From NCBI GenBank assembly GCA_964643685.1, contig CAZXTN010000003.1, positions 1 through 64,000 of the forward strand: a stretch of DNA of 64,000 bases, in the 5' to 3' direction. Below, piece after piece: positions 6,038 to 47,607 of this stretch (the stretch's first letter is position 1; every line of letters begins with the position of its first letter). A model generated the notes under the pieces. The model made no database searches. It worked only from the letters and a program-made list of their open reading frames with translations, and was not told where the DNA came from. Source of the DNA: Candidatus Micrarchaeota archaeon. GTDB taxonomy: Archaea > B1Sed10-29 > JAJRYS01. Both the position numbers and the translations under genes were made by a program.

Positions 6038-6676
6038 ATGAATGAAAAAGAAATTCTTAAAATTTTAATAAAAGAATACGGCAAGCCGACTACTCAGTTG
6101 ATTCATAGAAATCCTTTCCAGCTGATGATTGCCACGATTTTGTCAGCCCAATGCACTGATGAAAGAGTCAACAAAGTAGCTCCAATTCTATTTAAGAAAT
6201 ATAAGACGCCTAAGGATTTTGCAAAAGCTGATTTGAATGACTTGAAAAGAATAATTAAGTCAACTGGGTATTACAATCAAAAAGCAAAGCGTCTGAAAGA
6301 ATCATCCAAAATGTTAGTTGAAAAATACGGAGGCAAAGTGCCTGAGTCAGTAGACGAGCTTGTTAAGTTGCCTGGCGTTGGGAGAAAAACAGCTAATATT
6401 ATAATCACGTATGGCTTGAAAGGAAACCAGGGCATAGCAGTTGATACTCACGTGCGCAGGGTAAGTTACAGGTTGGGTTTGACTGAAAGCAAAAACCCTA
6501 AAATTATTGAGCAGGATTTGATGAAAAAGTTTAATAAAAAAGACTGGCCTTTAATCAATTCACTGTTGGTATGGCACGGTAGAAAATATTGTAATGCGCG
6601 CAAGCCAAAATGCAAAGAGTGTCCATTAAACAAAATATGTCCAAAAAGAGGGCTGAGCGAAGCGAATGCCGTCTAG
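6038..6676 (+). CDS. nth: Endonuclease III
   Basis: LSAQCTDERVN, LPGVGRKTAN, AVDTHV, CxxxxxxCxxCxxxxxC FeS motif. Confidence 0.96.
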   Translation: MNEKEILKILIKEYGKPTTQLIHRNPFQLMIATILSAQCTDERVNKVAPILFKKYKTPKDFAKADLNDLKRIIKSTGYYNQKAKRLKESSKMLVEKYGGKVPESVDELVKLPGVGRKTANIIITYGLKGNQGIAVDTHVRRVSYRLGLTESKNPKIIEQDLMKKFNKKDWPLINSLLVWHGRKYCNARKPKCKECPLNKICPKRGLSEANAV

Positions 6677-6754
6677 CGATCCAACGGCTGGCCGTTGGCG
6701 CGTAAGCCAAAATGCAAAGAGTGTCCATTGAATAAGATATGTCCAAAAAAAGGA
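6596..6754 (+). repeat. 57-bp direct duplication of the nth 3' end flanking a hairpin cassette
   Basis: 6596-6652 vs 6698-6754, 6 mismatches; intervening CTGAGCGAAGCGAATGCCGTCTAGCGATCCAACGGCTGGCCGTTG. Confidence 0.9.
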
Positions 6755-6765
6755 GTTGAAAAAAA

Positions 6766-8142
6766 GTGAGTGAAGAAAAGTTGAATAGGGTAATTAATTT
6801 TAATCAATTAGTGATTTATGGTGTAGGGGTTATTCTCGGTGCTGGTATTTACGCCTTGATTGGAGAAGCTGCTGGAACAACTGGCCCTAGTTTGTGGATG
6901 AGTTTTTTGTTTGCTGCAATAGTTGCTTCTTTCACTGGATTAAGTTACGCTGAACTTAGTTCAATAAAACAGACAACTGCATCTGAATACATGTACGTCA
7001 AGCAAGGTTTTAAGAACAAAAGAACTGCTTTTATTGTCAGCTGGTTGATTAACATAGTTGACATTACTGCAATTACCACTGTATCTCTTGGTTTTGCTAA
7101 TTACTTTGTTGCTTTATTTTTTCCAAAATTAATTGACAAGGTTATCCTCAGCTTGTTTGAAATAACCTTAACCCCTGTCGTACTTGTTGCTTCTTTGCTC
7201 ATCCTTGCCTTGACTTTAATTAATTACATTGGAATAAAACAATCCGTAAACTTGAACATAATATTCACTTTAATTGAGTCAATTGGTTTATTAGTTATCA
7301 TCCTGCTTGGAGGCATTCACTTGGCTCAAGGAGGGCACGTGCCTAACTTGCTTGAAATGCCTTTTGGTTTTACAGGATTGTTCGGAGCAGTGGCTTTGAT
7401 TTTCTTCGCTTACCTTGGTTTTGAAGACCTGGCTAACTTAGGAGAAGAAGTAAAGGAAGCTAAGAAAAACATTCCAAAAGCAATCTTATTATCAATAGTA
7501 ATAACAACAATCATCTACGTTCTTGTTTCAATTTCAGCTGTAAGCATAATTCCATGGCAACAATTAGGCAATTCTCCTCAGCCACTTGCTGATGTTGCCA
7601 ATGCAAAACTCGGAGCAAAAGGAAGTTTTATGCTTTCTTTCATTGCCTTATTTTCAACTTTCAACACAGTGCTTATAATGATTACAGCTGTTTCAAGAGT
7701 CATTTATGGAATGGCAAAAGATAATTCCTTGCCTAAATTTTTAGCAAAAGTAAGCAGAAAAAGAAAAACACCTGTAAATGCCTTAATTGCAGTTGCTTTA
7801 ATAGCAATTGCAGCTTCTTTCATGAAGGACATTGGAGAAGTAGCTGAGCTTACAACACTTGGAGTGTTTATTGTTTTTGGAATGATAAACGCTTCCTTAA
7901 TTAAAATAAGGTTAAGTAATGAAAAATTACCTGAAGACAGGTTCAAAACTCCTTTCAACATAGGCAGATTTCCTTTAATTCCTTTTTTTGGGTTGCTTTC
8001 AAGCATTTGGATGATTGGAACCTACCTCGTGAAAAACACTGCAAGTGGACTGCAGGTTAATTTATTAAATCCCTCAGTAATAATAGTAATCATTGAGATA
8101 ACACTGGGAATAATTGCTTTTGAACTGCTTAAAAGGAGATGA
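6766..8142 (+). CDS. APC-family amino acid permease
   Basis: GVGVILGAGIY, SYAELSS, FFAYLGFE..EEVK, SRVIYGMA; about 12 TM. Confidence 0.92.
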   Translation: MSEEKLNRVINFNQLVIYGVGVILGAGIYALIGEAAGTTGPSLWMSFLFAAIVASFTGLSYAELSSIKQTTASEYMYVKQGFKNKRTAFIVSWLINIVDITAITTVSLGFANYFVALFFPKLIDKVILSLFEITLTPVVLVASLLILALTLINYIGIKQSVNLNIIFTLIESIGLLVIILLGGIHLAQGGHVPNLLEMPFGFTGLFGAVALIFFAYLGFEDLANLGEEVKEAKKNIPKAILLSIVITTIIYVLVSISAVSIIPWQQLGNSPQPLADVANAKLGAKGSFMLSFIALFSTFNTVLIMITAVSRVIYGMAKDNSLPKFLAKVSRKRKTPVNALIAVALIAIAASFMKDIGEVAELTTLGVFIVFGMINASLIKIRLSNEKLPEDRFKTPFNIGRFPLIPFFGLLSSIWMIGTYLVKNTASGLQVNLLNPSVIIVIIEITLGIIAFELLKRR

Positions 8143-8414: not shown

Positions 8415-8532
8415 GCTGGCGACCACAGCGGAAGGGAAACACCTGGTAACATTCCGAACCCAGAAGTTAAGCCTTCCAGCGATTCGGCGTGTACTGAATT
8501 TATATTCGGGAAAACCGAGACGTTGCCTAGCA
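8415..8532 (+). rRNA. rrf: 5S rRNA (unlinked)
   Basis: GGCGACCACAGCG..ACACCTGG..CATTCCGAACCCAGAAGTTAAGCC..GTACTG..GGGAA..GTTGCC; own TATA (GTTTATAAA ~8383). Confidence 0.93.
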
Positions 8533-9013: not shown

Positions 9014-9113
9014 TGAAGTAAAAAAAAGAGGTTCTGGTTTTTAAAGAAAACGCTTAAATAAAAACAGTGCTTTTAGAAAATTAAAATACTTGAAAAAGAA
9101 GGTGGTTTTTGAA

Positions 9114-9620
9114 ATGAAGAACTTGTTGATTGTTTTAAGCTTGGTTGCAGTTGTTTTTTTAGCTGGTTGCATTCATAAAACAGCTCCTGAACATTCTTTT
9201 GAGGGAATTGATTGTGGCAGTGACACTGTGTGTTTTGCAAGTAATTTAGCTAAATGTAATCCAGCTAAGATTCAAGTAAGCCAAAATGTTAATGGAATGA
9301 ATGCTGTTTTTTACATGGATATTCAAGGAGGAACTGTGGATTCATGTGAAATTTATCAGCAGGTTAAGTCAATTGAGTTTCCTGAGAACATGAGTCCGGT
9401 TGAGAAAATGGCTGCGCAGTTAATGATTGGAGCTGATTCAACTTGCATTGGTCCTGTTGACAAGCTTAAAACAGGCAGTTTTGAGGAGTATGAAAAATAC
9501 TTTAATTGCAGTGGAACTTTGTATGAGTTAATGAAAGCAGGGAGTCAGCAGGTGGAGCAGGTAGTTGATAATACATCTGGGTATGAAGAAGAAGGGAGAA
9601 AAACATTAAACCCTAACTAA
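9114..9620 (+). CDS. Cys-rich predicted lipoprotein
   Basis: Signal ending FLAGC; DCGSD..CF....C pattern; SD GGTGG. Confidence 0.7.
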   Translation: MKNLLIVLSLVAVVFLAGCIHKTAPEHSFEGIDCGSDTVCFASNLAKCNPAKIQVSQNVNGMNAVFYMDIQGGTVDSCEIYQQVKSIEFPENMSPVEKMAAQLMIGADSTCIGPVDKLKTGSFEEYEKYFNCSGTLYELMKAGSQQVEQVVDNTSGYEEEGRKTLNPN

Positions 9621-9884
9621 AAACAATTCAACTTCTTTAAAAAAAGAGGACTTTATGTCCTCTGCCAATCCAATCAGTTTACAAGAGCCTTTACTCGCGT
9701 AAACTTCAGACGACCGTTGGGTAGGAAAATATTAAATTGCAAGAATAAATGGCATCGAGCTTAAGCGAAGATGGCATAGCGATCCAACGGCTGGCCGTTG
9801 GGGAGAAAAACATTAAACCCAACACTAAATTAAGGTAAAACAAGAGTTTTTAGAGGTCATCAAAGGCGAAGCTGAAGATGGCCT
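9594..9884 (+). repeat. Hairpin cassette cluster with 20-bp gene-end duplication
   Basis: GGGAGAAAAACATTAAACCC at 9594-9613 and 9801-9820; 25 bp (9777-9801) identical to 6674-6698; 9847-9884 homologous to the reverse complement of 23127-23165. Confidence 0.85.
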
Positions 9885-9897
9885 AATTATATTTCTT

Positions 9898-17121: not shown

Positions 17122-17550
17122 ATGAACTCGAAAATAAAAGCACTTGCAATACTCATAATAAGCATCATTACCTTCAGCTTAGGCTTTTTATCAGAAAACC
17201 TTGGAATAAAAACACTTCAAATAATACCCCCTGCAACAACAAACATCACATTAGTAGTAATCACCTTCGGATTTGGAATGCTCTTCTTCGGATACTTCCC
17301 ATGGATACTAACTTACTTCATAGGGGAATACCTCGGCTTAATTTTCAAACTTCATCAGCAATCCACAACCCAAATATTACTCCTTACCCTTGCAATAATG
17401 CTAATTGCCTTCTCAAGCTCATGGCTTGGAATAAGCTTATACAATGACTTAGCTGGAAAACAAAGCGCTTTCTCAAAAGAATTGAAAAAAAACACGATAA
17501 TCATAATAATCTCACTTATTCTAGCAATAGCAAGCCAAGTTATTGCATAA
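17122..17550 (+). CDS. Hypothetical membrane protein
   Basis: Several hydrophobic segments; correct frame by composition. Confidence 0.65.
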   Translation: MNSKIKALAILIISIITFSLGFLSENLGIKTLQIIPPATTNITLVVITFGFGMLFFGYFPWILTYFIGEYLGLIFKLHQQSTTQILLLTLAIMLIAFSSSWLGISLYNDLAGKQSAFSKELKKNTIIIIISLILAIASQVIA

Positions 17551-17814
17551 AAGTAGTTACAACAATATTTTTAAATAGAAGTTAAGAGCTTAACTATAAC
17601 TGAACAGACCTTTTTTCCAGAATGCGTCACCGTTGTTTTGGGAGAGTTTTCCGTTCAAAAAACTCTCCTATCTATTTTTACCTGAATCAAAAAGCAGAAT
17701 TAGAAGATAATAGAAACAGGAGTTTACAAAACATTTATAAACATGACACGATTACATTCTAACCTGCACACAAGAACTTGGACGAAAAAACGAAATTAAA
17801 GGAGGGACGAGAAA

Positions 17815-23015: not shown

Positions 23016-23100
23016 GCAGGGGTGCCGGAGCCTGGACAACGGGCAGGGTTGAGGGCCCTGTGACTTAGTGTCCACGCGAGTTCAAATCTCGTCCCCTGCA
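23016..23100 (+). tRNA. tRNA-Leu(GAG)
   Basis: Acceptor GCAGGGG/CCCCTGC-A, anticodon stem CAGGG/CCCTG with loop TTGAGGG, long variable arm, GTTCAAATC; CCA not encoded. Confidence 0.95.
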
Positions 23101-23102
23101 TC

Positions 23103-23233
23103 CCAACGGCCGTCCGTTGGATCGACAGGCCATCTTTCGGCTTCGCCTTCGATGACCTCTAAAAAAAAGAGGGCTCTCATTTTCTTTTTTAAAAAACATA
23201 AAGAAGAAGTTATCGAGCAAAGCGAAGATAACT
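23103..23233. repeat. Hairpin cassette cluster abutting tRNA-Leu 3' end
   Basis: CCAACGG-CCGT-CCGTTGG; AGGCCATC..GATGACCT; AGTTATC-GAGCAAAGCGAA-GATAACT; homologous to 6674-6698, 9750-9801 and 9847-9884. Confidence 0.85.
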
Positions 23234-26783: not shown

Positions 26784-26913
26784 AGACAGCTAAGCGAAGC
26801 GCATGCTGTCTACAGGGGAATCAGAAACTCCCTAGAAATCAATCGCCTAAAGACTCAAACGTTTTTCCTTAACAGGAAAAACTGAGAGGGGCAGCCAGCC
26901 CCCTGCGTTTCGG
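26784..26913 (+). repeat. Hairpin cassette between convergent genes
   Basis: AGACAGC-TAAGCGAAGCGCAT-GCTGTCT..CAGGGG..CCTAGA..GAGGGGC..GCCCCCTGCG..TCGGT; homologous to 44262-44350 on the minus strand. Confidence 0.75.
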
Positions 26914-27300
26914 TTAGATTTTCTTGTCTTCTCCGAATTTTTCATCCAAGTCCCTTTTGATTGAATTGCAGTCTGCAATAATCACGTCAAGGTGCTTAGT
27001 CATTCTGTCTTTTTCTTTTTCAATTTCTTTTGCTTTCCTGTATGGCTTTGAAGCTTCTTTGAACATCCTGTAGTCAAGCATTGCGTAAGGATACTCGTTC
27101 ATTTTTTTGGTTACGTCATCTACTATTTCAGCAAGAAATTGATTCATTGCAATCTTTACTTCTTTTTTAATCATTTTGCCTGAATCAATGTGTTTTTTCA
27201 TTTCCCTTACAATAGTTGCTGTTGGAAAAACCAAGTCAAGCTTGTCATCTTCAACTTCGTCTTCGACAACTTCGTCAATTTTTTCATCTAAATCAGCCAT
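26914..27300 (-). CDS. Histone-fold protein with acidic N-tail and C-terminal coiled coil
   Basis: FPTATIVREMK..KMIKKEVKIAMNQFL..LDYRMFKEA histone-fold pattern; own TATA and SD GGAGGAGTGA. Confidence 0.65.
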   Translation of the reverse strand: MADLDEKIDEVVEDEVEDDKLDLVFPTATIVREMKKHIDSGKMIKKEVKIAMNQFLAEIVDDVTKKMNEYPYAMLDYRMFKEASKPYRKAKEIEKEKDRMTKHLDVIIADCNSIKRDLDEKFGEDKKI

Positions 27301-43584: not shown

Positions 43585-44190
43585 ATGGCATTAACTGATT
43601 TTGAAAAAAAAGAAAAAAAACAAGAAGCTTACGAAGTTATAAAACTGAAAAAAATCGTGAAAGGAATAAAAGCTTCAGAAGAAACAGAAGAAAAAAGAAA
43701 CAGCAACGAACTTACCTTAATTTTTAAAAAACCTGATTTTTACCTTGAAACAAAAAAAGAAAATCATTACTCAATATGGCACAAGCCGACAATAATACTT
43801 CCTTACGAAGAAAAAACAAGAGAAGAAAAACCTGACTTTGTTTTCATTGCTGAAAAAACAAAACACTTGTATACTCTGGAGAATCTTGAAAAAAAAATAA
43901 AAACTCATAAAAAGATGACTGAAAAAATGAAAAAAGAACTCAGCAAAGAACTTTTAAAAAAAATGAAAAAAATAAAACTGCTTTTATACATAAGAAAAAA
44001 CTTGACTCAAAAAGAATTGACAAAAATAATCATTACAGCAAGTTACTTGAAACCAGAATACGCGGTAATAATTCTTGAAGAAAGCATGAAACCTTCAATT
44101 AAAATCGCCATGCCTGAGCAGATAAACTGCATTGAAAATACTGGAATAAACCAGCAGAAAGCAAAAAAAGCACTAAGGCAAGTGCTTTGA
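43585..44190 (+). CDS. Hypothetical protein (possible degenerate PD-(D/E)XK fold)
   Basis: 201-aa ORF; KPDFVFI motif only. Confidence 0.55.
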   Translation: MALTDFEKKEKKQEAYEVIKLKKIVKGIKASEETEEKRNSNELTLIFKKPDFYLETKKENHYSIWHKPTIILPYEEKTREEKPDFVFIAEKTKHLYTLENLEKKIKTHKKMTEKMKKELSKELLKKMKKIKLLLYIRKNLTQKELTKIIITASYLKPEYAVIILEESMKPSIKIAMPEQINCIENTGINQQKAKKALRQVL

Positions 44191-44223
44191 AACTAAGAAA
44201 ATAGATTAGGCAACGTTAAAATG

Positions 44224-44471
44224 AAAAATTAGATTATATATTCTTTCATTCTTCTTTTGATCACCGAGCCGCGGGGGACTCACCGCCCCCCTCAACTCTA
44301 GGTAACTCCTGCTCCCCCTGCTGACCACATGCGCTTCGCTTAGTGCTCATTTTTAGGGAATTCTTGAAAACTTTGAGTTTTCAAGTTTGCGAAGTTATAT
44401 TTCGCATAATCTGATCTCCCTCCTTAATAATAAAAAAATTAGATTATATATTCTTTCATTCTTCTTTTGAT
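44224..44471 (-). repeat. 38-bp perfect gene-end duplication flanking a 172-bp hairpin cassette
   Basis: AAAAATTAGATTATATATTCTTTCATTCTTCTTTTGAT at 44224-44261 and 44434-44471; insert has several hairpins including CTAAGCGAAGCGCATG (minus). Confidence 0.9.
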
Positions 44472-45122
44472 TTCGTCAAGAGGAAGAACAGTAGTTACTA
44501 ATGGAATTTTTTCAACCTCTGAAATCTTAAGAGCAACCTTGTCAACTTCAGAAATGTTATGAAGCACAACCATGGTAGGCTTCAATTTAGTTACACGGAT
44601 TGCAATCAAAGGGCTTCTTCCCATTGAAACATTAGTGAAAATCAAAGCCCTTTCAGTAGTGTTGCCGTAAATTTTAATAAATTCATCAGCAGGCAGTTCA
44701 AGAATAGCGCGGATAGAATCAACAATAGTAAAGCCGTAAATTTTGGTTTTTTTCAGAACTGCTTCGTTTGAAATTATTCTCCCTTCAATTGATTTTACAA
44801 AATCCTTTGACTTCATTGACTTGGAAAAATCCTCCACGTCAAAAACTTCACTTGGCTTCTGCAATTGAAGCTTTTTATAAACCCAGCCTCCTTTCTGCCT
44901 GTCAATTTCAATAATGGCATTCACAAACCTTTTAATAATGCTTGCTCCTGGACTCTTTCTCCTATTCCCTTCATAATCAGAGATAGTTGAAGGAGTTACA
45001 TTTAAAAAATCAGCTAATTCAGTTTGAGAAATTCCGAAAATTTCACGCCATTTTTTCAAAGAAGAGCCAGGGTTGTCACTTAAGGTAATTTCCCCTGCAA
45101 TGTCAAGCAAAATCTTGTCCAT
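44439..45122 (-). CDS. Conserved archaeal XRE-HTH transcriptional regulator (COG1709-like)
   Basis: IAGEITLSDNPG..KKWRE.F..SQ.ELA..ISDYE..RRKSPG; ERALIFT.VS.GRSP.IAIRV. Confidence 0.85.
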   Translation of the reverse strand: MDKILLDIAGEITLSDNPGSSLKKWREIFGISQTELADFLNVTPSTISDYEGNRRKSPGASIIKRFVNAIIEIDRQKGGWVYKKLQLQKPSEVFDVEDFSKSMKSKDFVKSIEGRIISNEAVLKKTKIYGFTIVDSIRAILELPADEFIKIYGNTTERALIFTNVSMGRSPLIAIRVTKLKPTMVVLHNISEVDKVALKISEVEKIPLVTTVLPLDEIKRRMKEYII

Positions 45123-47331: not shown

Positions 47332-47607
47332 TTAAGCTACTTGTTTTAAAGTAGTTTTTTTCAAGATTCTTTCAGTCATTTTGCCAACAGCAGTTTGTGG
47401 CTTGTAAGCTCCTCCTGCTATTTCAGCGCCGCATTTTGAGCACACCCAAAGAGAGTAGCCTTTTCTTTTCAAGGCTTTTCTTCCACATTGAGGGCATTTT
47501 TGCTTTGACTTTTGCTCTTTTTCAATGTCTCTTACTATTTGCTTTAATGGAGTGCTGTACCTTGAACCGAACCTGCTTGCTGACTTCAGCTTTGTTTTCT
47601 TAACCAT
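47332..47607 (-). CDS. rpl37ae: 50S ribosomal protein L37Ae (eL43)
   Basis: RFGSRY, CPQC..WVCSKCG..AGGAY. Confidence 0.95.
   Translation of the reverse strand: MVKKTKLKSASRFGSRYSTPLKQIVRDIEKEQKSKQKCPQCGRKALKRKGYSLWVCSKCGAEIAGGAYKPQTAVGKMTERILKKTTLKQVA

Follow-up and report, generated by a model that had tools for sequence, protein, structure and literature searches.

A two-hairpin element probably entered the last codons of nth with a long target duplication in a DPANN archaeon

We analysed a 64,000-nt stretch of a Candidatus Micrarchaeota genome (contig CAZXTN010000003.1, positions 1 to 64,000; hereafter the window), in which housekeeping genes make up the ORFs at 4.4-24.8 kb. At the locus under study, nth, identified by an HhH-GPD profile match (1.7e-28), is followed by an amino-acid permease gene, and the junction of the two genes carries these features:

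6038..6676, + strand: nth (endonuclease III) ORF, 212 aa; its last seven codons and TAG would stem from an inserted element
6596..6652, + strand: upstream, expressed copy of the gene end, ARKPKCKECPLNKICPKRG; its clean target part ends in an A-run at about 6646
6647..6674, + strand: element hairpin 1, AGAGGGC / loop TGAGCGAAGCGAAT / GCCGTCT, with a stem that covaries across the family
6653..6676, + strand: new nth tail LSEANAV plus TAG, from hairpin 1 and the linker; present in none of the homologues examined
6677..6698, + strand: linker followed by hairpin 2 (CGAT-CCAACGG-CTGG-CCGTTGG), which forms the exact right end of the element
6698..6754, + strand: downstream, stranded copy of the gene end, ARKPKCKECPLNKICPKKG, the probable ancestral end
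6751..6754, + strand: GGAG, 12-15 nt ahead of the permease GTG
6755..6769, + strand: ancestral last codons VEKK and TGA, overlapping the permease GTG
6766..8142, + strand: amino-acid permease gene, whose start would formerly have overlapped the nth stop

The 3' end of nth is present twice. Direct repeats at 6596-6652 and 6698-6754 match at 51 of 57 positions, start 102 nt apart and lie in the same frame, that of nth, in which both encode ARKPKCKECPLNKICPK(R/K)G. As the first-pass annotation had described, the six mismatches (repeat positions 6, 33, 36, 39, 53 and 57; all transitions) comprise five synonymous changes and one R/K difference. The nth ORF closes with ...CPKRGLSEANAV-TAG, and the second copy stays open in frame to a TGA at 6767-6769 that overlaps the permease GTG at 6766, again as first reported; taken together, insert and repeat span 34 codons exactly, interrupted by one in-frame stop (...NAV*RSNGWPLARKPKC...VEKK*). 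The 46-nt insert occurs once in the window. A CCAACGG-CTGG-CCGTTGG hairpin lies at 6681-6698; its last G is base 1 of the second copy, and its core occurs three times in the window against 0.01 expected. The true start of the insert lies further upstream, in a first hairpin, AGAGGGC-TGAGCGAAGCGAAT-GCCGTCT, at 6647-6674. Since hairpin 1 already begins at 6647, the last two repeat mismatches are better read as microhomology at the junction of element and target, and the clean repeat measures about 51 nt with four mismatches, all of them synonymous third-position transitions.

Independently assembled data from other samples and studies reproduce this structure. Logan contigs of runs X3 (433 nt, 6397-6829) and X4 (239 nt, 6591-6829), although of a depth of only about 3, span both repeat copies and the insert with no differences, and no contig lacking the insert was seen among the Logan contigs of runs X1-X4, those covering 6250-7200 coming from X3 and X4, although X1 and X2 contain all the sampled words too. 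The contigs bridge the whole structure, and it is therefore not an assembly chimera.

Positions 6647-6698 constitute a full copy of a non-coding, two-hairpin element of about 53 nt, found at five sites in this 0.7-Mb DPANN genome and at seven sites in sister-species contigs; the hairpin-2 core accounts for three sites in the 695,104-nt genome. The element occurs in a short variant and in a long variant with extra sequence within hairpin 2 (window 9643-9719 and C2:1545-1622), and its hairpin-1 design, AGA-NNNN...NNNN-TCT, is common to it and to the type I element of about 80 nt, the commonest in the genome. It is a member of a lineage-specific repeat superfamily. Further copies in the window lie as follows:

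9594..9833, + strand: sister locus at the end of ORF 9090-9620, with a perfect 20-nt repeat (9594-9613 / 9801-9820) around a composite insert
9645..9663 and 9714..9720, + strand: hairpin 1 and right end CCGTTGG of the long variant at this locus
9720..9729, + strand: 10-nt relic GGTAGGAAAA at the same locus
9749..9801, + strand: short variant at the same locus
23103..23160, - strand: third short-variant copy, directly behind tRNA-Leu(GAG) (23016-23100), in opposite orientation and with no flanking repeat detected
26784..26915, + strand: type I element copy of about 80 nt, sharing the hairpin-1 design and lying immediately behind a stop codon
44224..44471, - strand: type I element flanked on both sides by perfect 38-nt repeats of a gene 3' end

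The ends of the element are rather precise in 12 copies (AGAsG... on the left, ...CCGTTGG on the right). The right end abuts unrelated flanks in the five own-genome and seven metagenome copies, upholding the original proposal that the right junction is set by the hairpin end; the roughly 45 bp of cargo proposed with it is present as an insert, and instead of being private to nth it is part of the element at 6647-6698, shared with these other sites. The flanks include the nth codon run, the ORF 9090 end, the end of a histone-like gene (whose 58-aa product matched no Pfam family) and tRNA-Leu, and in all three copies flanked by repeats the last G of the element is also the first repeat base. The hairpin-1 stem covaries, with 94% of cells paired, three of seven pairs changed on both sides and a covariation score of 0.378 against 0.152 in shuffles, none of 500 of which scored as high. 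A 25-nt stretch of the nth element, TAGCGATCCAACGGCTGGCCGTTGG, is identical to the copy at 9777-9801. The seven metagenome copies reside on six low-GC contigs of one metagenome, with flanks 81-87% identical to this genome, and the multi-copy families differ between sister species at orthologous sites. Hairpin 2 was absent from all 30 other genomes of the class searched; four matches in genome contigs were taken as chance, their hosts being bacteria of 60-68% GC. In Rfam no match over 6500-6900 was better than E = 3.7, and neither 1-30000 nor 44100-44600 yielded a relevant family; the fold energy of the insert is ordinary for its composition (z = -0.96; z = +0.35 for a 201-nt region).

Relatives identify the downstream copy as the ancestral, translationally coupled end, in agreement with the first-pass annotation. 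Their nth ends once, as ...CP(K/R)(K/N)GV(E/D/Q/K)..; each of the nine nth tails inspected in relatives has one Fe-S loop, LSEANAV appears in none of them and a G-V-(E/D/Q/K) continuation in four, and the nine closest database homologues (the nearest of them 78-82% identical) agree in loop and tail, with the continuation in six. Close homologues also display natural R/K-type variation (CPKRGV in P0002, KKGV in P0003). Three genomes of the same family (G001, G003 and G004), distant at about 62% amino-acid identity, carry one copy of the nth end and no insert: the DNA of G001, ...aaaaggagttgaataaagtgagt, agrees with the tail of the stranded copy, and in G003 nth overlaps the ATG of the same permease gene by 8 nt. 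The genome holds no nth paralogue that could have donated the upstream copy, and the 26-mer common to both repeat copies matched no metagenome contig. A sister-species contig, that of locus L030, is collinear with window 17395-17681 and is expected to start near the nth/permease junction.

The same architecture recurs across the genome. In about 20 of 29 local repeat pairs inspected, the end of a gene or tRNA is followed by a hairpin insert and then by a second copy of that end, with repeats of 19-57 nt; the 29 were drawn from 92 listed pairs that include scaffolding artefacts and intragenic repeats. Repeat length varies from about 51-57 nt at nth to 20 nt at 9594/9801 and about 33 nt at C2:1485/1622, and at about 13 other loci the two copies are identical. 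Inserts are copied together with flanking DNA: at the ORF 9090 and histone-like loci the long variant has the same leader, the same element and the same 10 nt (GGTAGGAAAA) past its right end, where the upstream repeat instead reads GG(C/G)AGAAAAA, and type I copies bring additional, variable DNA on their left side and fragments of tRNA T-arm on their right. Tandem end-element-end-element arrays are found at L027, L031 and C6:36369. In all nine own-genome cases with an assignable 3' end (an ORF or recognisable tRNA, judged by eye) the element runs in the direction of the gene. A reading-frame regularity gave no clear signal, the spacing being divisible by three in 19 of 38 pairs (intragenic protein repeats included).

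Profile searches for mobility enzymes in this genome, which is 91.75% complete, returned no match for RVT_1 (PF00078), Phage_integrase (PF00589), DDE_Tnp_1 (PF01609), Cas1 or Y1_Tnp (PF01797). For a Cas12f/TnpB zinc ribbon, the sole match, at 47419-47529, stayed below threshold (23.6 bits; cut-off 26.3).

Among known systems, the closest parallel is insertion with long target duplication, reportedly also the subject of Nobusato et al. 2000 (Gene 259:99). The account by Furuta, Abe & Kobayashi 2010 (PMC2853133) describes direct repeats of more than 30 bp that copy the target, vary in length, are not always identical (44/46, 43/46) and often span a translation stop or start, with no transposase or integrase, with empty sites in relatives and with the mechanism given as unknown; the described cases are bacterial restriction-modification units of kilobases, and no archaeal case survived its screen. 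The nth locus resembles these in its repeat of 51-57 nt, which is single in the distant, insert-free relatives, and in having no mobility gene in or beside its 53-nt insert; it differs in its cargo, two hairpins of a multi-copy family rather than a restriction-modification unit, and in its host, a DPANN archaeon. The first-pass annotation had likened the junction to att-site gene-end replacement. That analogy is not supported, given that no tyrosine integrase was found in the 91.75%-complete genome, that every site has a different target with no attachment sequence common to the copies, and that about 20 unrelated ends look alike; different targets, recurring architecture and the lack of an integrase mark nth as an insertion with long target duplication instead.

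Other classes match in part. Long, variable direct repeats also accompany certain insertion sequences, reportedly 19-26 bp in IS1630 and 8-514 bp in IS1634/IS1549 (PMC2266710); these elements are 1.5-2 kb long and encode a DDE transposase, of the IS4-related type in the IS1634 family, whereas the nth insert is non-coding and has no inverted terminal repeats. MITEs, REP/BIME sequences and IS200/IS605 derivatives are likewise small, non-coding, hairpin-forming, multi-copy and located at gene ends, and IS200/IS605 derivatives share the asymmetric ends and subterminal hairpins. MITEs, however, have inverted terminal repeats and short fixed duplications, whereas AGAGGGC... and ...CCGTTGG are not complementary and the duplications here are long and variable; IS200/IS605 derivatives make no duplication and need the Y1 transposase. 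At rhs and T6SS effector loci, C-terminal displacement is said to proceed similarly (Kirchberger et al. 2017; Jackson et al. 2009), and mORF endonuclease elements of fungal mitochondria set a new 3' end before the old one. Both resemble nth in placing a new end ahead of an orphan old end, with one junction homologous and the other illegitimate; both supply a functional C-terminal domain with an immunity or endonuclease gene, in contrast to two hairpins and seven arbitrary codons. SINEs and target-primed reverse transcription are similar in their duplications of variable length, in having a 3' end that is precise and a 5' end that varies, and in flank carry-over. The nth element, by contrast, ends in CCGTTGG with no A-rich tail, no reverse transcriptase was found, and the duplications exceed the typical length. 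A diversity-generating retroelement would produce adenine-specific differences with a reverse transcriptase, unlike the C/T, A/G and G/A transitions at nth. Our literature search returned no published description of such hairpin insertions with gene-end duplication in these archaea.

We conclude, with a probability of about 0.85, that an element was inserted at nth with a long target duplication that left the ancestral nth end stranded. The non-coding element of about 53 nt would have entered the last codons of nth, with some 51 nt of target duplicated alongside. Translation of nth would now run from the upstream copy into hairpin 1 and stop at the TAG of the element; the ancestral ...GVEKK end and the stop/start overlap with the permease would have been lost from nth, and the downstream copy would remain as an untranslated leader of the permease, with its GGAG and GTG start. 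Such an insertion could be tolerated because the long duplication left both neighbouring genes what they need.

As to how the element arrived, we tentatively suggest, at a little under even odds, that it has no enzyme of its own and that strand or template switching, in replication or in repair, copied it into place. The sequence of the target is CCAAAAAAAGGAG and that of the element leader (T)nAAAGAG, and a nascent strand might quit the target in the A-run and anneal, through this microhomology, to the leader AAAGAG of a second element copy. The strand would copy that element through the end of the very stable second hairpin and then re-anneal upstream on the original template, replicating the gene end a second time. 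GCGAAGC hairpins have polymerase-stalling properties. The uniform same-sense orientation is not predicted by passive switching, and the precise ends and compensated hairpin-1 stem fit recognition by a protein, such as a trans-acting transposase or nuclease, neither of which was found.

The divergence of the two copies bears on timing. If the expressed copy alone were constrained, five synonymous changes out of six would have P = 0.016-0.11, and four out of four on the 51-nt repeat P = 0.011-0.063, for a pair chosen as striking out of about seven diverged ones. Pooling seven coding repeat pairs gives 17 synonymous against 7 non-synonymous changes (P = 0.0001-0.03; with 2 of the 17 possibly located in a 5' UTR), and 12 against 6 with nth left out (P = 0.003-0.12). 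Simple decay of a free copy would predict fewer synonymous changes than are seen, both at nth and in the pool. Other stranded copies do carry amino-acid changes (GRKTVGSYDI against the family-conserved GRKTVR..D). The element itself looks younger than the repeat, to judge from its sequence: the repeat copies differ by 8-10%, yet TAGCGATCCAACGGCTGGCCGTTGG is unchanged relative to its sister copy and both hairpins are intact. Strand-asymmetric deamination was considered and set aside, the C/T and A/G pattern holding for all four nth differences but being mixed in other pairs. That the four to six differences postdate the insertion, coding selection having preserved the upstream copy, we rate at even odds or a shade above; the complete account, joining insertion, switching and divergence in situ, falls slightly on the favourable side of even.

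It is rather unlikely that the element is non-autonomous and enzyme-driven, with a trans-acting transposase or nuclease, unassembled here or borne on a virus or plasmid, recognising the hairpin ends and making widely staggered cuts whose gap filling would give long, variable duplications as in IS1634/IS1549. The documented repeats of those elements, the precise ends of the 12 copies, the covariation of hairpin 1 with its conserved AGA...TCT closing pairs, and the multi-copy families that differ between sister species all suit it; the empty profile searches, the absence of terminal inverted repeats, the varying left ends and the flanking DNA brought from previous sites do not, and the 10 flank bases shared by two loci are left unexplained.

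Also unlikely is the origin first proposed for the expressed end, import together with the hairpin from a diverged relative's allele. Homology within nth would have produced one junction, illegitimate joining at the hairpin end the other (homology-facilitated illegitimate recombination), in effect a C-terminal displacement with almost no cargo, and both copies would have evolved as real coding ends in separate lineages. The synonymous excess, at nth and pooled, the intact element in an 8-10% diverged repeat, the natural R/K variation and the co-occurrence in vent metagenomes of related species with the same element family all accord with import. The claim is nevertheless not established by P values of 0.016-0.11 for a pair flagged because it looked synonymous, and stranded copies decay elsewhere. 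A donor nth would already have to read into the element after CPKRG, which merely shifts the insertion to another lineage; LSEANAV occurs in none of the nine nearest homologues, no donor allele was found, and the identical copies at about 13 other loci show that foreign alleles are not needed for the architecture.

We regard as distinctly improbable a dedicated process that turns over gene ends, in which hairpin-bounded cassettes (a few codons, a stop and two hairpins) are copied sense-wise onto gene and tRNA 3' ends with long duplications and the displaced ends stay under coding-like constraint. Such constraint might act through exchange of cassettes or ends between lineages, or through removal or bypass at the RNA level, as with type I elements in tRNA T-loops, and the nth locus would then correspond, among protein genes, to a tRNA intron acquired through insertion with duplication.

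Very unlikely, too, is an RNA-mediated origin, the insert being either a retroposed transcript 3' end finishing at hairpin 2, or part of 102 nt that are removed or read through and leave the stranded copy in use. The sense orientation in nine of nine cases, the precise right and variable left ends, the 34 codons with one in-frame stop and the synonymous excess would fit, as would the type I 3' module inside the T-loop region of tRNA-Gln, which must be removed from the RNA. Against it, there is neither a reverse transcriptase match nor an A-tail; a bulge-helix-bulge scan yielded nothing beyond background, its single weak, A/U-rich candidate (6623/6725, offset 102) having come from criteria that produce about 30 hits in every 240 nt; TAG, if rare, is a normal stop in this genome, closing 26 of the 440 long ORFs; and the spacing is a multiple of three in only four of eight pairs at protein-gene 3' ends.

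We give almost no credence to an assembler having joined two strain alleles in tandem: exact 55-nt artefactual repeats do occur around 100-N scaffold gaps, but the nth repeat is inexact, its longest shared run of 26 nt is below Logan's k of 31, its insert is a family member with defined ends, and the bridging contigs already contradict it.

Insertion with long target duplication ties a single odd nth locus to a genome-wide family of hairpin elements spreading without a recognisable mobility enzyme. It would mean that insertions at overlapping gene junctions are affordable even for a very compact genome, neither gene being lost and each neighbour receiving one copy of the junction. Should template switching at stable hairpins underlie the spread, that process is naturally recorded in these genomes; should there be an enzyme, it would be of a new kind, making widely staggered cuts. 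Because the same elements lie in tRNA genes, the process may also account for oddly positioned introns in archaeal tRNAs.

The end of nth, which encodes endonuclease III, is present twice ahead of the amino-acid permease gene that follows it, and the two copies flank an element of about 53 nt. The junction and the related copies of the element comprise the following features (window coordinates unless a contig of this genome is named).

6038-6676, nth (endonuclease III), HhH-GPD E = 1.7e-28
6647-6674, hairpin 1, AGAGGGC / TGAGCGAAGCGAAT / GCCGTCT, overlapping the final "repeat" bases and encoding the new nth tail
6681-6698, hairpin 2
6766-8142, amino-acid permease gene, GTG start, next gene after nth
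9643-9719 and C2:1545-1622, long variants of the element, about 35 extra nt within hairpin 2
23103-23124, opposite orientation, variant of the element 3' of tRNA-Leu

The direct repeats (6596-6652 and 6698-6754) differ at 6 of 57 positions, all transitions (five synonymous, one R/K), and their 102-nt offset places both in one reading frame. Each encodes ARKPKCKECPLNKICPK(R/K)G, with three of the Fe-S loop's four cysteines; the upstream copy continues LSEANAV-TAG and the downstream copy VEKK-TGA, this TGA overlapping the permease GTG, so that 6596-6769 reads in frame through a single stop (...NAV*RSNGWPLARKPKC...VEKK*). The first-pass annotation had described an in-frame repeat with a hairpin at the start of its second copy, and this anatomy is right: the final base of CCAACGG-CTGG-CCGTTGG is the first base of the downstream copy. 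A spacing of exactly 102 nt is found in four unrelated pairs (starts C2:1759, C3:6596, C6:36066 and C2:36772), which may be coincidence, and a stand-alone 5S rRNA gene (8415-8531, 67 bits) adjoins the permease gene end.

The structure is not produced by assembly. The annotation had suggested looking for sequence spanning both copies, and Logan contigs of two sequencing runs from other samples and studies bridge it entirely with no differences (X3, 6397-6829; X4, 6591-6829); their depth is about 3, two further runs (X1 and X2) have no contig over this part, and no insert-free contig was seen. Exact 55-nt repeats around 100-N gaps elsewhere in the genome (C1:199881-200090, C4:40522-40731, C5:27105-27314) and at a contig start (C8:1-172) are artefacts, produced by scaffolding in a k = 55 assembly, and carry no biology.

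Judged by comparison with relatives, the downstream copy is the ancestral, translationally coupled nth end, as first proposed, because the Fe-S loop is single in the nth of nine relatives with inspected tails and nine nearest database homologues (62-82% identity), the DNA of G001, a relative of the same family (...aaaaggagttgaataaagtgagt), closely matches the stranded tail, and in G003, another such relative, the same permease gene lies 3' of nth with its ATG overlapping the nth stop by 8 nt. Homologous proteins stop a few residues past CP(K/R)(K/N)G, usually with V and then E, D, Q or K, and the LSEANAV tail occurs in none of the nine relatives or nine homologues. After insertion, none of the four nth cysteines is lost and the protein has an arbitrary tail of 7 extra residues; the permease gene is no longer coupled to nth but retains the 72 nt upstream of it, with GGAG positioned 12-15 nt before the GTG. 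A BHB scan (at background) and stop usage gave no evidence of read-through or splicing at nth; TAG ends 26 of 440 long ORFs. Both 6698-6769 and C5:14421-14512 are former stop-on-start gene overlaps in which duplication left each gene one junction copy, and at the latter the downstream gene's copy has the stronger GGAGGTGA motif.

The insert is predicted to fold into two hairpins, and it is not the private filler of about 45 bp that had been supposed but a family element present at multiple sites in this genome and its sister species. An exact second copy of its final 25 nt, TAGCGATCCAACGGCTGGCCGTTGG, lies at 9777-9801, and within the 695-kb genome the short form of hairpin 2 is confined to three sites (nth, 9777-9801 and 23103-23124). 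Hairpin 2 was found in none of 30 further genomes in the class and occurs seven times on six low-GC contigs of one metagenome, whose flanks are 81-87% identical to this genome and which therefore come from a sister species; the consensus there is (T)nAAAGAG - hairpin 1 - GT - CGATCCAACGGNNGGCCGTTGG, with the right end always ...CCGTTGG. The hairpin 1 design (AGA-NNNN / loop TAAGCGAAGCGCAT or TTTAT / NNNN-TCT) is common to the type I element, the genome's commonest, of about 80 nt. The hairpin 1 stem is maintained via compensatory changes: in six distinct sequences, 94% of cells are paired and three of seven pairs are changed on both sides, for a covariation score of 0.378 (0.152 in shuffles, none of 500 scoring as high). 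The element has no Rfam match.

Genome self-comparison gave 92 local direct-repeat pairs, a count that takes in scaffolding artefacts (exact 55-mers at 100-N gaps) and intragenic repeats; about 20 of the 29 inspected consist of a gene or tRNA end, a hairpin-rich insert of 35-220 nt and a copy of that end, with repeats of 19-57 nt, about 13 of them perfect. Among such loci is 44224-44471 (-), where perfect 38-nt repeats of the 3' end of a gene enclose a type I element. At the sister locus (9594-9833), a perfect 20-nt repeat encloses a composite insert with long and short variants. Three in-frame tail versions of one gene stand in series across 9594-9885 (starts 9594, 9720 and 9801; spacings 126 and 81 nt), and a hairpin module comes after every one of them, the third module (9847-9884) being hairpin 1 alone. 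The final 20 or so residues of this ORF (9090-9620) have no counterpart in relatives, where homology stops at about residue 146-156 of 176. At C2:1341-1710, a conserved 58-aa histone-like gene, which has no Pfam family, has its end duplicated around a long variant; the expressed copy has the family GRKTVR..D end, and the stranded copy, GRKTVGSYDI, is followed by a solo hairpin 1 (AGACGGC-TTTAC-GCCTTCT). In relatives, too, this gene has a GC-rich hairpin directly past its stop. At C1:166380-166830, the type I 3' module lies in the T-loop region of a tRNA-Gln, flanked by GCGGTTCG-like repeats, and once more past the tRNA, where copies of the tRNA 3' end enclose it; no tRNA is called there by ARAGORN. 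The tRNA locus at C2:39781-40160 and its sister-species orthologue have exons about 90% identical, unrelated inserts in the T-arm region and wholly different downstream hairpin modules. A 94-aa frame at 47419-47529 (-) has a sub-threshold Cas12f/TnpB zinc-ribbon match (23.6 against a cut-off of 26.3 bits).

The long variants at the ORF9090 and histone-like loci have in common a leader, the element and 10 nt, GGTAGGAAAA, past its right end, where the upstream repeat has GG(C/G)AGAAAAA instead; the long-variant insert was therefore copied, along with DNA flanking it, from an earlier site, and was joined in short homology. Left boundaries vary and include extra DNA, and type I copies terminate in tRNA T-arm pieces. 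Copied flanks and variable boundaries favour a copying process (strand switching or recombination) over cut-and-paste. At nth we favour a template switch (probability about 0.4), because the left junction lies within an A-run (target CCAAAAAAAGGAG, element leader AAAGAG) and the right junction has one G in common. A nascent strand would leave the nth target, copy another element through the end of the stable hairpin 2 and re-anneal upstream, so that the gene end would be replicated twice; the GCGAAGC mini-hairpin is exceptionally stable in single-stranded DNA. Precise element ends, the covarying hairpin 1 stem and sense orientation relative to the gene in all nine assignable cases run counter to such a switch; they fit movement by a trans-acting enzyme, which we consider rather unlikely, or an RNA intermediate, which seems improbable. 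Reverse transcriptase, tyrosine integrase, DDE transposase, Cas1 and Y1 transposase had no matches in the genome (91.75% complete). As these matches are missing, targets are unrelated between sites and repeat lengths vary, both att-site exchange and an ordinary MITE are excluded; the first-pass analogy to att-site gene-end replacement is wrong.

Synonymous differences between repeat copies are in moderate excess. Enumerating every substitution in the nth-end repeat gave P = 0.0013-0.018 for at least five of six synonymous if both copies drift freely, and 0.016-0.11, a spread set by the assumed transition bias, if one copy drifts and the expressed one tolerates synonymous changes alone; the cleaner 51-nt repeat (4/4 synonymous) gave 0.011-0.063. 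Seven coding pairs pooled had 17 synonymous and 7 non-synonymous differences (P = 0.0001-0.03; 2 of the 17 possibly in a 5' UTR), or 12 and 6 without nth (P = 0.003-0.12). In-situ divergence of the nth-end copies has, in our view, even odds or slightly better. That the expressed end was imported from a diverged allele would fit this excess and an element that looks younger than the repeat, but the nth pair was selected because of its pattern, amino-acid changes do occur in other stranded copies, the donor nth would need the element already inside, and no donor allele was found; import is unlikely.

Among published classes, the nearest by description is insertion with long target duplication, whose repeats likewise span stops and starts and are not always identical, and whose mechanism is not known; as described there, it concerns bacterial restriction-modification units only (Furuta et al. 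2010, PMC2853133). IS1634 and IS1549 also have long repeats (8-514 bp) but, as described, encode their own transposase (PMC2266710). The nth locus is a real, well-preserved case of recurrent insertion of a small hairpin element at DPANN archaeal gene ends, a phenomenon apparently new to the literature.
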